From IMG/VR virus record IMGVR_UViG_2690316068_000001, positions 1 to 64,000 of that record: a DNA stretch of 64,000 nucleotides. One strand, given 5' to 3'. The position numbers and the translations under genes were made by a program. The DNA comes from a virus. Taxonomy: Duplodnaviria; Heunggongvirae; Uroviricota; Caudoviricetes. Positions 16,684 through 62,730 of the stretch are shown here, one piece after another; within the stretch, counting starts at the first letter, position 1; each line of letters opens with the position of its first letter. Under the pieces are notes generated by a model that did no database searches, had not been told where the DNA came from, and saw nothing but the letters and a program-made list of their open reading frames with translations.

Positions 16684-16780
16684 GTATTTTTAAGTCACGA
16701 ATGCTATCTTTTCGCATCATATTGACCTTTTAATCGTTCAGGCTTATAGTTCCGCCGTCGTAGCAAATTCTGCGACCAGG

Positions 16781-16803
16781 TTTGACAGCCTGAATGATTG
16801 TGC
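16781..16803 (+). promoter_or_regulatory. c4 antisense target repeat (a1/b1-like: tttgacag…gattgtg)
   Basis: Direct repeat of the 16940-16986 element; complementary to ctgtcaa/cacaatc at 16908-16927. Confidence 0.5.
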
Positions 16804-16867
16804 GGACAACCGCAGATTTCCGATATTGCGGTATTTTTGTGTCCGTTAAACCGCGTTACGCCCAAAT

Positions 16868-16945
16868 TATGGTGGGGCGTGATGGGGAGGCTTCGGCCTG
16901 CTGGTTTCACAATCGCCAGTCTGTCAACCCTGTCACGTCCTGCCA
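16868..16945 (+). ncRNA. c4: c4-like antisense RNA (approximate bounds)
   Basis: Contains cacaatc (16908-16914) and ctgtcaa (16921-16927), complementary to both target repeats; position upstream of icd. Ends not determined. Confidence 0.45.
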
Positions 16946-16986
16946 CCTGTTTGACAGCGGGTAGCAGGTTGTTAAACCTGATTGTG
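16940..16986 (+). promoter_or_regulatory. c4 antisense target repeat (a2/b2-like) overlapping icd ribosome binding region
   Basis: tttgacag (16940-16947) and gattgtg (16980-16986) immediately upstream of icd start. Confidence 0.5.
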
Positions 16987-18423: not shown

Positions 18424-19224
18424 ATGCAACAAACATTCAATGCGGATATGAATATATCAAACCTTCATCAAAATGTCGATCCTTCAACCACTCTGCCCGT
18501 TATTTGTGGTGTTGAAATTACGACCGACCGCGCTGGCCGTTACAACCTTAATGCTCTACACAGAGCGAGCGGACTCGGTGCCCATAAAGCGCCAGCTCAA
18601 TGGCTAAGAACGCTGTCAGCTAAACAGCTCATCGAAGAGCTTGAAAAAGAAACTATGCAGAATTGCATAGTTTCGTTCGAAGGCCGTGGCGGCGGCACTT
18701 TTGCCCATGAATTGCTCGCAGTGGAGTACGCTGGTTGGATTTCTCCCGCGTTTCGGCTGAAGGTAAACCAGACATTTATCGACTATCGAGCCGGAAGATT
18801 ACAACCTGCTATTCCGCAGAGTCTCCCTGAAGCTCTCCGTTTGGCTGCCGACCTGGCAGAGCAAAAGCAACGGCTGGAACAAAAAATGCTTATGGATGCA
18901 CCTAAAGTCGAATTCGCCGAACGCGTTGCTACCGCCAGCGGGGTTCTAATCGGCAACTATGCCAAAGTGCTCGGTCTGGGCCAAAACTATCTCTTCACCT
19001 GGTTGCGTGATAACGGAATTCTGATCGCAACCGGTGAACGCAGGAACGTCCCCAAACAAGAATACATATCCCGTGGGTATTTCACCCTTAAAGAAACCGT
19101 GATCGATACAAGCAATGGAAGCAGGATTTCTTTCACGACTCGTATAACCGGCAAAGGTCAGCAGTGGCTGATGAAGCGATTGCTTGATGCTGGTGTGCTG
19201 GTACCTGTCGCGGCAACGCGCTAA
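18424..19224 (+). CDS. kilA: KilA-like protein (KilA-N domain, antirepressor-type C-terminus)
   Basis: 266 aa; N-terminal KilA-N-like region; C-terminal half homologous to the Ant-like protein. Confidence 0.65.
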   Translation: MQQTFNADMNISNLHQNVDPSTTLPVICGVEITTDRAGRYNLNALHRASGLGAHKAPAQWLRTLSAKQLIEELEKETMQNCIVSFEGRGGGTFAHELLAVEYAGWISPAFRLKVNQTFIDYRAGRLQPAIPQSLPEALRLAADLAEQKQRLEQKMLMDAPKVEFAERVATASGVLIGNYAKVLGLGQNYLFTWLRDNGILIATGERRNVPKQEYISRGYFTLKETVIDTSNGSRISFTTRITGKGQQWLMKRLLDAGVLVPVAATR

Positions 19225-19253: not shown

Positions 19254-20099
19254 ATGCTGGCTAAAGTCACTTTCCTGAGCTGTATAACGATGAGCGATTT
19301 TACTTTTTCTGGCTATGAATTGGCCTGCTTTGTAACACACTCCGGTCTATCCCGTAGCGCCGGGCATATCCTGTCGCAATGTGCAAATCTAGCGGCAACA
19401 ACCAGTGAATACTTCATTCACAAGCCTCACCGCCTGATCGCGGCAGAAACTGGTTATAGCCAATCAACCGTCGTTCGTGCATTCCGTGAAGCTGTAAACA
19501 AAGGAATTCTGTCTGTAGAGATTGTTATCGGCGATCACCGTGAACGTCGCGCTAACCTGTACCGGTTTACACCATCCTTTTTGGCCTTCGCACAACAAGC
19601 CAAAAATGCGCTGATTGAAAGCAAATTAAAGATCTCTTCAGCGGCAACCAAGGTTAAAGCTGTTCTTGCTAAGACATTGGTTTTATTTAATTTTTTATCC
19701 ACACCCCCATGTCAAAATGATACCCCCTCCCCCTGTCAGGATGACGTGGCAATAAAGAATAAGAAGTCACAAGTTAAAAAAACAAAAAGATCAGTTTCCG
19801 GCGGTGCCGGAACGACCAGACTCAAAAAATTGACTTCATGGATCGCTGAGGCAAAAGCAAAGGCTGACAATCTGCGGTTATCCAAAAAACGCGCTCAAAA
19901 ACATGAGTTCAAGCAGAAAGTAGAGGCGGCAGCGCGGAAATATGCTTACCTGAAGGACAAGCGTTCTCCTGATATTGGCGGGATATCAAACTTCGATAAT
20001 CTGCCGCATTGCATGACGGTAAACGAAGCTCTTAATACGGTTTTAGCCAAAAATAAAGATAACGAACAATGGGGTATACCGGCAGGATTCAGAGGGTGA
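19254..20099 (+). CDS. repL: RepL-like lytic replication initiator
   Basis: 281 aa, directly after kilA; HTH-like segment; size and order fit a kilA-repL lytic replicon. Confidence 0.65.
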   Translation: MLAKVTFLSCITMSDFTFSGYELACFVTHSGLSRSAGHILSQCANLAATTSEYFIHKPHRLIAAETGYSQSTVVRAFREAVNKGILSVEIVIGDHRERRANLYRFTPSFLAFAQQAKNALIESKLKISSAATKVKAVLAKTLVLFNFLSTPPCQNDTPSPCQDDVAIKNKKSQVKKTKRSVSGGAGTTRLKKLTSWIAEAKAKADNLRLSKKRAQKHEFKQKVEAAARKYAYLKDKRSPDIGGISNFDNLPHCMTVNEALNTVLAKNKDNEQWGIPAGFRG

Positions 20100-20158
20100 T
20101 AGATTGCTCTAATCTGGAGTCACCTGGCGTTTTCAGTTTGAGGTCGGAGATGCAATCT

Positions 20159-20395
20159 GATTTTTTACAGTTAGCGATCGCTTTTGCAGGATATGTTTGT
20201 ATTGGCTTCTGTGTATACATGATCAGCCGAAAAATGCTTGTCGATATCGACCGCAAAGAACGAGCAGAGGAGATCTTAGTATGGATTTTCTTTGGCGCGG
20301 TCTGGCCATTAGGGATCATGTTTGCTGCAACATTTCTTCTGATGTGGATATTCACCCTTCCAGGTGATTTCTATAGAAAAAAAGCCAGACATTGA
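20159..20395 (+). CDS. Small membrane protein
   Basis: ORF-track frame 20069-20395; internal ATG at 20159 gives ~78 aa with two hydrophobic segments. Confidence 0.45.
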   Translation, partial: DFLQLAIAFAGYVCIGFCVYMISRKMLVDIDRKERAEEILVWIFFGAVWPLGIMFAATFLLMWIFTLPGDFYRKKARH

Positions 20396-20518
20396 TACAA
20401 TCGTTGCGGGTGCTTGAGGCTATCTGCTTCAGGCATTACCCGAAAAGCAGATAGAAGAAAGCCCCAGATAACATTACGCGTCCTGCAAGACGCTTAACAT
20501 TAATCTGAGGCCATATCT

Positions 20519-20725
20519 ATGCTTAGCATACGTAGATTAGCCTCTTACCGACCAAAAGGTCAAGGAGAAGCAGGCTATGAAGCAGCAAAAAGCGATGTTA
20601 ATCGCTCTGATCGTCATCTGTTTAACCGTCATTGTGACGGCACTGGTAACGAGGAAAGACCTCTGCGAGGTACGAATCCGAACCGGCCAGACGGAGGTCA
20701 CTGTCTTCACAGCCTACGAATCTGA
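20519..20725 (+). CDS. mok: Mok-like overlapping reading frame
   Basis: 68-aa ORF in another frame, almost fully overlapping the hok-like ORF, as in hok/sok loci. Confidence 0.45.
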   Translation: MLSIRRLASYRPKGQGEAGYEAAKSDVNRSDRHLFNRHCDGTGNEERPLRGTNPNRPDGGHCLHSLRI

Positions 20726-20732
20726 AAGGTAA
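20577..20732 (+). CDS. hok: Hok/Gef-family type I toxin (51 aa)
   Basis: MKQQKAMLIALIVICLTVIVTALVTRKDLCEVRIRTGQTEVTVFTAYESER is a close match to Gef/HokC-type toxins; SD aggaga upstream; below ORF-track size cut-off. Confidence 0.8.
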   Translation: MKQQKAMLIALIVICLTVIVTALVTRKDLCEVRIRTGQTEVTVFTAYESER

Positions 20733-20804
20733 GAGACCTGGCGGGGAGAGATCCTCGCCACTCTTCGTGTGTCAGGTATCCTCAATGCACCCTTTCCTCT
20801 CCAA

Positions 20805-20834
20805 ATAAAAAAGCTCCCGAAGGAGCTTTAAAAT
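20805..20834. terminator. Bidirectional rho-independent terminator
   Basis: aaaaaagctcccgaaggagctttaaaat between convergent transcription units. Confidence 0.65.
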
Positions 20835-20848
20835 ACAAGGGATGACTC

Positions 20849-21358
20849 TTAATCCCACTCAATCCAGTTGTAGACGATACGAAGTGACGGGCGCACAGCG
20901 GCAGTCACATCTTCGGTACTAAAGTCGATTGCATCACTGTAGATTTTGCAGTCCAACATTTCAATTGTTGTAGCAGCTTTTGTCACAGCGTTAACCCCGG
21001 AAGATTTGGATTCAGGGGTAGCAGCCATCGTGATATCAACATAGTCCTTCGCCGCAATGCGATCCTTGATGAACTGAAGAATATCGCCTTCGATAGTCTC
21101 CACGCACTGGACCTGGATTTCCCCAGAGTTTCGAATTGGTCCGTGCTGGTTGAACTTCACACCATTCGGACCATAGTCCTCCACATCCTCGCGGGTCATT
21201 TCAGGAATTTGCGACGTGCGAACCAGTACGCTGATATCTTCATGGCCTGCAAAAGTGAGCTGGAATTCAGAAGATACCAGTCGTTCGCCTTTGGCCGCGT
21301 TGGCAGTATAGCGGCCCTTAATAAATTTACGGTTTCCCTTAGTGTTATTGTGCCCCAT
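20849..21358 (-). CDS. Phage structural protein (possibly tail tube-like)
   Basis: 169-aa ORF downstream of sheath-like gene. Confidence 0.35.
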   Translation of the reverse strand: MGHNNTKGNRKFIKGRYTANAAKGERLVSSEFQLTFAGHEDISVLVRTSQIPEMTREDVEDYGPNGVKFNQHGPIRNSGEIQVQCVETIEGDILQFIKDRIAAKDYVDITMAATPESKSSGVNAVTKAATTIEMLDCKIYSDAIDFSTEDVTAAVRPSLRIVYNWIEWD

Positions 21359-37191: not shown

Positions 37192-37267
37192 GATGGTGTA
37201 GCTCAGCGGTTAGAGCGGTTGACTGTTAATCAACGGGTCGATGGTTCAAATCCATCCACCATCGCCA
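37192..37267 (+). tRNA. tRNA-Asn (anticodon GTT)
   Basis: Cloverleaf: acceptor gatggtg/caccatc, anticodon loop ctGTTaa at 37225-37227, T-loop ggttcaaatcc, encoded CCA. Confidence 0.85.
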
Positions 37268-37269
37268 AT

Positions 37270-37345
37270 GCCGGTTTAGCTCAGTTGGTAGAGCGCCTGC
37301 CTTGTAAGCAGGATGTCAGCGGTTCGAGTCCGTTAATCGGCACCA
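37270..37345 (+). tRNA. tRNA-Thr (anticodon TGT)
   Basis: gccggtttagctcagttggtagagc…cttGTaa (anticodon 37313-37315)…ggttcgagtcc…cacca. Confidence 0.85.
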
Positions 37346-61666: not shown

Positions 61667-62056
61667 ATGGGCTTCCCTTCTCCTGCGGCGGATTATGTTG
61701 AAAGCCGAATTTCTCTTGATCAGCAACTAATCAGGCATCCATCAGCAACCTACTTCATGCGGGCAGCTGATAGCCATCACCGTGAGGGAATATTGCAGGG
61801 TGCTTTGCTGGTGGTTGATTCCTCGCTTACTCCGGTTGATGGTTCTCTGCTTGTGTGCGCTATGGAGGGTGAATATCGCATAAAGAGATACAGGAAGTAT
61901 CCGCGCCAGCACCTGGAGGATTTAAGCACCGGGAAGAAAGAGGCGTTACCAGTAGATGACGATGGATGCACGGGCAGTAATGCTGTTTTTGGTGTGATCA
62001 CTCATGTCATCAATGATGCCCGAAGTGGGGAGTTTGATGATTGTCCGGTTATTTAA
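61667..62056 (+). CDS. humD: UmuD-like protein (processed UmuD-prime-type, no LexA-like cleavage region)
   Basis: 129 aa; S24 peptidase-like fold motifs (…GDSM-equivalent region, LVVDSSLTPVDGSLLV…). Confidence 0.75.
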   Translation: MGFPSPAADYVESRISLDQQLIRHPSATYFMRAADSHHREGILQGALLVVDSSLTPVDGSLLVCAMEGEYRIKRYRKYPRQHLEDLSTGKKEALPVDDDGCTGSNAVFGVITHVINDARSGEFDDCPVI

Positions 62057-62122: not shown

Positions 62123-62350
62123 GTGTTTATGCAATCCATTAACTTCCGTACCGCGCGCGGCAACCTTTCTGAAGTGCTCAACAATGTTGAAGCCGGGGAA
62201 GAGGTTGAAATCACCCGCAGAGGCCGTGAGCCAGCAGTAATTGTCAGCAAGGCTACTTTCGAAGCCTACAAAAAAGCGGCGCTGGATGCTGAATTTGCAT
62301 CCCTGTTTGACACCCTGGACTCCACCAACAAGGAACTGGTTAACCGATAA
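62123..62350 (+). CDS. phd: Phd antitoxin
   Basis: [73 protein letters not shown]. Confidence 0.9.
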
Positions 62351-62730
62351 TGAGGCATATATCACCGGAAGAACTTATTGCGCTTCATGATGCGAATATA
62401 AGCCGCTACGGCGGCCTGCCTGGCATGTCAGATCCGGGCAGGGCAGAGGCCATTATCGGGAGAGTTCAGGCCAGAGTTGCCTACGAAGAGATCACCGACC
62501 TTTTCGAAGTCTCCGCCACCTACCTGGTGGCTACAGCGAGAGGGCATATATTCAATGATGCCAATAAGCGTACCGCGCTAAACAGCGCGCTGCTATTTCT
62601 ACGCCGTAACGGGGTGCAGGTATTTGATTCACCTGAACTGGCAGACCTTACTGTAGGCGCTGCGACTGGCGAGATATCTGTATCTTCTGTCGCCGACACG
62701 TTACGTAGATTGTATGGTTCTGCGGAGTAG
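62350..62730 (+). CDS. doc: Doc toxin (Fic-fold kinase)
   Basis: 126 aa, start overlaps phd stop; conserved HxFx(D/N)(A/G)NKR motif (HIFNDANKR). Confidence 0.9.

Follow-up and report, generated by a model that had tools for sequence, protein, structure and literature searches.

A predicted hok/mok/sok toxin-antitoxin locus of the HokD/HokW subgroup on a P1-like phage-plasmid

Introduction

The hokW-sokW pair is a functional type I toxin-antitoxin system in which the toxicity of HokW is counteracted by sokW, and HokW, a near relative of the toxin described here, is 44% identical to Hok of plasmid R1 (PMC8621323). According to the R1 scheme, the hok mRNA is closed by pairing between its tac and fbi elements, with ucb lying over the mok Shine-Dalgarno sequence (SD); 3' trimming is then followed by the tac/ucb and SDmok/dcb pairings, Sok binds and the resulting duplex is cleaved by RNase III, and a metastable 5' hairpin is present during transcription (PMC9841398). 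Toxicity upon expression is also reported for HokD and, likewise, for HokC (bioRxiv 10.1101/2025.08.07.668861).

Type I toxins are short and, like the antisense RNAs that belong to them, escape ORF-length cut-offs; the value of describing them lies in annotation and bookkeeping. Such a locus is analysed here in a window of 64,000 nt, comprising positions 1 to 64,000 of the IMG/VR virus record IMGVR_UViG_2690316068_000001. We put the probability at roughly 90% that a P1-like phage-plasmid carries here a complete type I toxin-antitoxin locus, a hok/mok/sok of the HokD/HokW subgroup, with a predicted killer function.

Results

The toxin gene and the overlapping mok frame

The plus strand of the window harbours a 51-codon ORF (20577-20732), preceded by the SD AAGGAG (20562-20567, 9 nt 5' of the AUG), and a 68-codon ORF (20519-20725) which overlaps it; the positions and translations of both agree with those given in a first-pass annotation made from the sequence alone. 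The shorter ORF was assigned there to the Hok/Gef family, and the HMM check bears this out. Its product, MKQQKAMLIALIVICLTVIVTALVTRKDLCEVRIRTGQTEVTVFTAYESER, matches Pfam HOK_GEF (PF01848) over the entire profile (positions 1-42 of 42) with 78.7 bits against a cut-off of 22 (E 2.4e-22), and PHROG 251, "MokW-like host killing", with 110.7 bits (E 4.9e-32). The further proposal of Gef/HokC as the close relative needs correction: the toxin shares 48 of its 51 residues with HokD (RelF) of K-12 and 47 with HokW of phage 933W, as compared with 41 in the case of K-12 HokC (Gef). The alignments with HokD and HokW are gap-free, while K-12 HokC is one residue shorter C-terminally. By its sequence, the toxin is a member of the HokD/HokW subgroup and is not nearest to Gef. 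Two NCBIfam Hok models, NF007279 and NF007290, score the protein below threshold (Hok subfamily, 49.5 bits versus 73; HokA, 38.1 versus 89); these models do not capture the HokD/HokW subgroup.

The toxin starts with a basic N-terminus (MKQQK), continues with the hydrophobic stretch AMLIALIVICLTVIVTALV and then with TRKDLCEV, the cysteine of which is residue 30; one N-terminal membrane helix is predicted. Besides Cys15 and Cys30 the protein has Tyr47, which occupies the position of the second cysteine. Tyrosine is the norm at this position in HokC, HokD and HokE (bioRxiv 10.1101/2025.08.07.668861), and the interpretation of Tyr47 as an inactivating defect was therefore rejected. Since the encoded residue is Tyr rather than Cys, full toxicity may depend on mRNA editing, which has been reported for hokC/D/E (bioRxiv 10.1101/2025.08.07.668861). 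The Tyr47 codon does lie in a TadA-like CUACGAA motif, but the local fold (-1.6 kcal/mol) does not surpass those of shuffles and no hairpin that would present the motif is predicted, so that the editing idea rests on the motif and on the hokC/D/E literature.

The longer ORF was proposed to be an overlapping, out-of-frame mok, and this reading is well borne out. It has its own SD, GAGG (20507-20510), 8 nt before the mok AUG, and it ends 7 nt before the hok stop codon; the mok start lies 58 nt 5' of the hok start, and the two genes are therefore in different frames. A like layout is annotated in the record of phage Rac, where mok is 207 nt long and hok starts 58 nt downstream. The exact 68-aa mok sequence is present on at least 1000 public contigs.

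Leader elements and folding of the hok mRNA

The Rfam model RF01794 ("sok") scores 114.9 bits (gathering score 59, E 6.3e-27) on the plus strand, where it aligns over its full length (model positions 1-157 of 157) to 20408-20582. Since the model spans the region from the mRNA 5' end, GGGUGCUUGAGG, to an AUG next to the start of hok, what it describes is the leader of hok, with sok inside it in antisense. The full-length mok-hok bicistronic mRNA is predicted to extend from 20408 to 20795; its 3' end would lie either just past fbi or at a hairpin located at 20810-20829. The minimum free energy (MFE) of the 20408-20795 RNA is -154.7 kcal/mol (z = -7.9 versus shuffles), and its 5' end is paired to its 3' end.

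In the full-length fold, tac (GGGUGCUUGAGG, 20408-20419), which takes part in an Rfam consensus helix, pairs with fbi (CCUCAAUGCACCC, 20780-20792), the last block of hok-family homology. The two are complementary at 12 of 13 nt, with one bulge, and their pairing is found in both the MFE and the centroid structure, with 97.3% of the cells paired across the six loci that have fbi. Also present in both structures is the pairing of ucb, the anti-SD element (AAGCCCCAGAU, 20459-20469), with the mok SD region, which defines the closed form. In the open form ucb is paired with tac instead: folds of 60-140 nt, as well as constrained folds of the truncated RNA, contain the pairing of tac with the ucb segment AAGCCCC. 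The dcb element GCCUC (20540-20544) pairs in the open truncated form with GAGGC at the mok SD, according to an Rfam consensus helix and the constrained folds. All 12 of the 12 open-form pairs are Watson-Crick.

The thermodynamic predictions point to a switch between these two forms. Forcing the open tac/ucb form upon the full-length RNA is predicted to cost 13-17 kcal/mol, whereas in the RNA truncated at 20763 the open form with tac/ucb and SDmok/dcb is predicted to lie within 1.8 kcal/mol of the MFE. The metastable tac hairpin is formed by the first 40 nt of the mRNA. It counts against the mechanism, however, that the ViennaRNA MFE structure of the truncated RNA is the metastable-hairpin form and not the open one.

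Two further hairpins were recognised in the transcript. The stem-loop noted earlier in the leader (ctatctgctt/aagcagatag, 20420-20454) is indeed there, its arms being located at 20420-20429 and 20445-20454; this tac stem is a conserved helix both in the Rfam alignment and in an alignment of seven loci, and it bears here one compensatory change (C-G to U-A) relative to the other loci. Meanwhile, a GC-rich hairpin with a GAGA loop at 20739-20760 (-16.3 kcal/mol, z = -3.4), with compensatory changes at two pairs, corresponds to the 3'-terminal protective hairpin of the processed (truncated) hok mRNA, its role being taken to be as in R1. The same hairpin is the target of IS186/IS421 in sibling plasmids.

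The seven-locus alignment comprised the locus of the window and those of phage Rac, pPE4, 933W, an O157 chromosome and strain NWU_4, as well as K-12 hokC. In these loci 88.8% of the cells are paired, as opposed to 33-42% with slid partners, and 10 pairs are changed on both sides versus 3.9 ± 1.4 in shuffles, in a test of low power that comprised seven loci of 84-91% identity and a structure derived from the window sequence itself. A search for inactivating changes, which the first-pass annotation had named as a ground for refutation, returned no frameshift, stop codon, IS element or broken helix in the ORFs and RNA elements. As far as the sequence allows one to judge, the locus has every element of the hok family, all of them without visible damage.

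The hok promoter and the boundaries of the locus

A pattern scan of positions 20300-20900 identified a putative hok promoter on the plus strand (20374-20401) consisting of TAGAAA, a 16-nt spacer and an extended -10 element, TG-n-TACAAT. The -10 element falls into the first columns of hok-family homology, where six other hok loci have TAGAAT or TATAAT, and it precedes the start of the Rfam model (20408) by 7 nt. The -35 element, by contrast, lies inside the 3' end of the upstream orf81, in flanking DNA that is not homologous, and this was counted against a working locus. The BLASTN search delimits the hok-family homology to 933W hokW-mokW-sokW at exactly 20396-20792 (86.5% identity).

The locus had also been described as ending at a strong terminator. 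The hairpin in question, AAAGCTCC-CGAA-GGAGCTTT (20810-20829; 8 bp and a tetraloop), is real and folds on either strand (plus, -11 kcal/mol; minus, -13.9 kcal/mol), but it is not a part of the cassette. It is identical in reference P1, which lacks hok, and since P1 homology resumes at 20807 it belongs to the P1 backbone, where it is the terminator on the bplB side; the pattern scan calls it as a terminator on the minus (bplB) strand only. The hok homology ends at 20792, and the hairpin was rejected as a native hok terminator. We infer that, acting as a possible bidirectional stop, it may nevertheless halt hok transcripts 16 nt past fbi.

The Sok antisense RNA

The first-pass annotation had suggested a minus-strand search for a Sok-like promoter and terminator, and the outcome was mixed. 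The position of Sok was obtained by homology: the annotated SokW (933W) and SokC (K-12) map a gene of about 71-77 nt to the minus strand at 20451-20527, and projection through the seven-locus alignment places the probable 5' end at the G at 20527 and the 3' end at about 20451-20457. In the fold of the predicted RNA (-33.2 kcal/mol, z = -5.7) an unpaired 5' tail is followed by a long hairpin and then by a U-rich tail; the RNA is the full complement of the SD and the start codon of mok. The promoter, on the other hand, went uncalled, as the consensus scan of 20300-20900 found the hok promoter and no minus-strand promoter for Sok. A putative Sok promoter was placed by homology and by eye at 20534-20563 on the minus strand, where the annotated SokW and SokC have their promoters; it consists of the -35 element TTGACC (20563-20558), an 18-nt spacer and the -10 element TAATCT (20539-20534). 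The scan missed it because this -10 element is weak, with 3 of 6 consensus matches, which was likewise counted against a working locus.

A cassette exchanged in a P1-like backbone

The element that carries the locus is a P1-like (Punavirus) phage-plasmid. Its kilA, repL, bplB and pmgG genes are 97-99% identical at the DNA level to those of P1 and P1-like records, the window contains the C4 antisense RNA together with its a1/b1 targets, and nine matches to the C1 operator were found where 0.3 were expected. The second killing module proposed earlier, phd-doc at 62123-62730, is present as well, with matches to Phd (PF02604) and Doc (PF02661). The element thus has two addiction systems of different types, the RNA-controlled hok/sok and the protein-controlled phd-doc.

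Comparison with reference P1 (NC_005856), as advised in the first-pass annotation, revealed that P1 has no hok and carries rlfA-rlfB-pmgF at the equivalent position. According to the BLASTN breakpoints, a cassette of 693 bp (20114-20806), made up of orf81 and hok/sok, stands in place of the 1826-bp rlfA-rlfB-pmgF segment; orf81 (20150-20395) encodes an 81-aa two-helix membrane protein and is found in P1-like elements only. On the right, the breakpoint is at 20807. On the left, it lies just past the 11-nt core, ATTGCTCTAAT (20103-20113), of the C1 operator Op55/Orlf. The right 6 nt of the retained Op55 deviate from the consensus, and Op55 of P1 itself is about as poor; C1 control of hok by way of the retained core is conjectural. 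The cassette is thereby situated between the C1-controlled lytic replicon kilA-repL and the late tail genes. The same substitution was given by Venturini et al. (2019) as "2 orfs including antibacterial toxin" (PMC6906374). Sibling plasmids in which IS186/IS421 is inserted between hok and fbi, or in which the hok ORF is replaced, also occur.

Distribution and prior annotation

The locus had been called unannotated, which is true of the ORF track of the window; public records, however, do name the identical protein HokD. The 51-aa sequence is present on at least 1000 public contigs, and in RefSeq P1-like plasmids it is designated "type I toxin-antitoxin system toxin HokD" (WP_001313475.1). The 601-bp junction at 20300-20900 is covered by at least 80% in at least 227 PLSDB plasmids, with 99-100% identity (100% in many of them) and hokD annotated. 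The locus is thus already known: hundreds of P1-like plasmids in public records carry it at this very position, annotated as HokD. The junction was also found in six phage records, which represent five distinct phages: phi456, the three deposited as phage P1 (MH422554, MH445380 and MH445381) and Ro157c2YLVW; the sixth record, NC_050153, is the RefSeq copy of the latter. In MH422554 the hok ORF is labelled "MokW".

A hok locus at least 95% identical to the present one occurs in 533 records, repL of the window type in 516 and rlfA-rlfB-pmgF of P1 in 101, counts that are only roughly comparable because the hok matches need not be on P1-like plasmids. In PLSDB the cassette with hok seems to outnumber rlfA-rlfB-pmgF several-fold, and in this respect the P1 reference of the laboratory is atypical among natural P1-like plasmids. 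Loci related to the hokD type are present in 4739 of 5426 complete E. coli genomes. In the published literature we found no study of hok/sok function in a P1-like element; the papers found on P1-like elements and phage-plasmids discuss hok on other plasmids only.

Discussion

Proposed mechanism

Following the R1 paradigm, a weak constitutive promoter would give rise to a stable mRNA of roughly 390 nt, in which the 5' tac is paired with the 3' fbi and ucb covers the mok SD. Since the mok SD would be hidden by ucb in this closed form, both ribosomes and Sok would be kept off the mRNA. Slow 3' trimming as far as the hairpin at 20739-20760 would strip off fbi, whereupon tac would move to ucb and the mok start region would become exposed. 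As long as the plasmid is present, the short-lived Sok, transcribed from the minus strand between 20527 and about 20451, would pair over the mok SD and AUG, and mok and the coupled hok would remain untranslated because of the proposed cleavage of the Sok/mRNA duplex by RNase III. Upon loss of the plasmid or a halt of transcription Sok would be the first to decay, the processed mRNA would be translated, and the 51-aa Hok would damage the inner membrane. The net effect would be addiction to the plasmid prophage, in parallel to phd-doc. By analogy, the most likely role of the locus would be post-segregational killing beside phd-doc, possibly with some added help in lysis, as in the case of hokW-sokW.

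Alternative roles

A purely chance ORF or a decayed hok remnant could be suspected in view of the very short reading frame (51 aa) and of K-12 hokD, which has no upstream 40% of the locus. Such an origin has a negligible probability, given E-values of 1e-22 to 1e-32 and a full 397-nt locus with tac, ucb, Sok, mok, hok, the 3' hairpin and fbi all in place; it is refuted by the Pfam and Rfam matches, the full-locus homology and the fold of the mRNA. An intact locus may still be inert for killing, in the way of chromosomal hok genes, and persist by hitch-hiking or by selfish spread of the cassette. This is rather doubtful. It would agree with the absence of post-segregational killing and of rifampicin activation noted for native hokA, hokB and hokC in the summary given by bioRxiv 10.1101/2025.08.07.668861, with Tyr47 in place of the second Cys and with the siblings, whose tolerance of IS186/IS421 insertion or of hok ORF replacement suggests weak selection on the locus. 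Yet all the regulatory elements are intact and the ORFs open, HokD, HokC and HokW are toxic upon expression, and the uninterrupted junction is kept at 99-100% identity in at least 227 PLSDB plasmids. A defensive role by abortive infection, in which an invader that shuts off host transcription would deplete Sok and release Hok, appears distinctly improbable and is the least supported of the addiction, lytic, inert and exclusion options: hok/sok of R1, on a high-copy plasmid, was reported to lower T4 plating, but a 2026 micropublication, to judge from its title, "Re-evaluating the role of hok/Sok in T4 phage defense" (PMC13047441), revisits that effect, and a survey of Hok found no enrichment of hok beside defence systems (bioRxiv 10.1101/2025.08.07.668861).

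A role in the lytic cycle is conceivable, if tentative, and is argued by analogy. Sok would vanish on induction and Hok would weaken the inner membrane, leading to earlier lysis and a larger release of phage. The closest experimentally studied relative, hokW-sokW (87.6% DNA identity; 47 of 51 aa), behaves in this manner: Sok of the Stx2 prophage Sp5 disappears upon induction, and deletion of hokW-sokW from Sp5 halves the release and delays lysis (PMC8621323). The location of the cassette between kilA-repL and the late tail genes, with the Op55/Orlf core surviving at its left edge, would fit as well. Against this, the classical role for a plasmid prophage of low copy number such as P1 is addiction, and no promoter under C1 control was identified that would read into hok, the predicted PrlfA of P1 being located in the replaced segment. 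A lytic role is in any case compatible with addiction. An extended version, in which hok/sok, instead of merely backing up addiction, is wired into the lysis-lysogeny switch and fires on induction to aid lysis and release, in which TadA-mediated conversion of Tyr47 to Cys tunes its potency and in which repL-bplB is a hotspot of exchange, seems unlikely. It leans on the position right after the C1-controlled kilA-repL and on the retained Op55 core, and the alternative cargoes between repL and bplB are, in this version, hok/sok, rlfA-rlfB-pmgF, IS186 and other ORFs. Post-segregational killing stays the preferred reading, and new biology would be implied only if the locus acted in lysis or induction and not in maintaining the plasmid.

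Comparison with known hok/sok systems

With hok/sok (parB) of plasmid R1 the locus shares the same list of parts and the same predicted conformational logic, including the protective 3' hairpin and the metastable 5' hairpin, whereas the sequence similarity is low and R1 Hok encodes both cysteines, the second of which is Tyr in the toxin of the window. In R1, mok is likewise out of frame with hok. A "distant" BLASTN search with the locus as query did not reach the R1, F and pnd-type hok loci, and the comparison with R1 consequently rests on Rfam, the published scheme (PMC9841398) and the above frame of mok.

K-12 hokC (gef)/mokC/sokC belongs to the same family and has the same layout, and its annotated SokC maps to the same segment of the leader. 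In addition, IS186 is found beside its 3' hairpin, at the same site as IS186/IS421 in the sibling P1-like plasmids. It differs from the locus of the window by a toxin identical at 41 of 51 residues, by a Sok hairpin that is 18 nt shorter and by a mokC that is in frame with hokC.

The nearest toxin sequence is that of hokD (relF) of the K-12 Qin prophage (48 of 51). K-12-like genomes match only positions 168-397 of the query, so that K-12 hokD is devoid of the upstream 40% of the locus, namely the promoter, tac, ucb, Sok and the mok start. The locus of the window is complete by comparison, and its toxin ends in ...YESER, as opposed to ...YEPEE in K-12.

The closest likeness over the whole 397-nt locus is to hokW-mokW-sokW of 933W and Sp5 (VT2-Sakai), with 86.5-87.6% DNA identity and a toxin identical at 47 of 51 residues; tac, ucb, fbi, the Sok hairpin and the 3' hairpin of 933W are at matching positions. 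A difference lies in mokW, which starts 57 nt before hokW and in frame with it, yielding an N-terminally extended Hok. It is an extra T at 20560 that gives the locus of the window, as in the phage Rac record, its 58-nt offset and out-of-frame mok, and that also makes the Sok -35 element TTGACC. Both loci are carried by temperate phages, that of 933W by an integrated lambdoid phage and that of the window by a plasmid prophage.

Genomic setting of the hok/sok cassette

The cassette of orf81 and hok/sok (window 20114-20806) occupies the place of rlfA-rlfB-pmgF of P1, and its left breakpoint lies exactly at the C1 operator Op55/Orlf, of which an 11-nt core (ATTGCTCTAAT) is retained at 20103-20113, the right 6 nt being replaced. 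The first gene, orf81 (20150-20395), codes for 81 aa with two hydrophobic stretches, or for 108 aa if translation is started from an upstream ATG at 20069. It is situated immediately upstream of hok, with its stop codon adjoining the hok -10. The product matches PHROG 3772, a family of function unknown, and was found by tblastn to be confined to P1-like phages, including a 44% relative in SJ46.

Several other features of the phage-plasmid were annotated as well. A C4 antisense RNA (RF01695) is present at 16744-16950 along with the a1/b1 target of this RNA (RF03163), and the two are a marker of the P1 immI region. Part of the kilA-type antirepressor gene (18826-19095) shares ∼66% DNA identity with a second KilA/Ant gene, which L001 and L004, two sibling records, carry ∼1 kb upstream; the two are paralogous antirepressor modules. 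Three tRNA genes (Rfam tRNA, 65-75 bits) are encoded on the plus strand at 37192-37342 and 38982-39054. In addition, an ORF of 129 aa at 61667-62056, just upstream of phd-doc, codes for a Peptidase_S24 (LexA/UmuD-like) domain; its location would be that of humD on the P1 gene map.

Variation of the hok locus

In some P1-like plasmids, such as NZ_MW390536 (2501-3279), the first 147 nt of the hok locus alone are kept, corresponding to 20396-20542 of the window, and mok/hok is replaced by a minus-strand ORF of 198 aa. This remnant, which lacks the toxin, retains the hok -10 and the mRNA control elements tac and ucb, as well as the body and the -10 of Sok, and might still produce part of Sok.

The Tyr47 codon of hok, UAC, is embedded in the heptanucleotide CUACGAA (20714-20720), which is identical to the 7-nt loop of the anticodon arm of tRNA-Arg(ACG) that is edited by TadA. 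No stable local hairpin was predicted around this heptanucleotide at 20714-20720. Tyr to Cys recoding of the hokC, hokD and hokE mRNAs at the Tyr47 position is stated in a preprint (bioRxiv 10.1101/2025.08.07.668861).

The record of Actinobacillus phage vB_Apl-pPE4 (PP818812) contains at 301-700 a hokD/hokW locus of E. coli type with 89% identity. This record has the appearance of a lambdoid phage of E. coli, and its Actinobacillus host assignment may therefore be worth checking.

Comparison with known hok loci

In many sibling P1-like plasmids the hok locus is split, one piece covering query positions up to 359 and a second piece 349-397. As seen in CP099239 (2859-4100), the 3' hairpin between hok and fbi is interrupted by an IS4-family element, IS186/IS421. 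Window 20746-20755, when reverse-complemented, yields the 10-bp target repeat GGATCTCTCC given by Venturini 2019 (PMC6906374). The hokC locus of K-12 (L006, 1-732) carries IS186A at the site equivalent to 20739-20760, whereas the window copy of hok is without interruption there.

Compared with 933W, pPE4 and NWU_4, the window harbours one additional T at 20560, within GGTCAAGG. Because of this nucleotide the Sok -35 reads TTGACC and the mok-hok offset amounts to 58 nt, hence mok of the window is out of frame with hok, while in 933W and in K-12 hokC mok is in frame and annotated as an N-terminally extended Hok.
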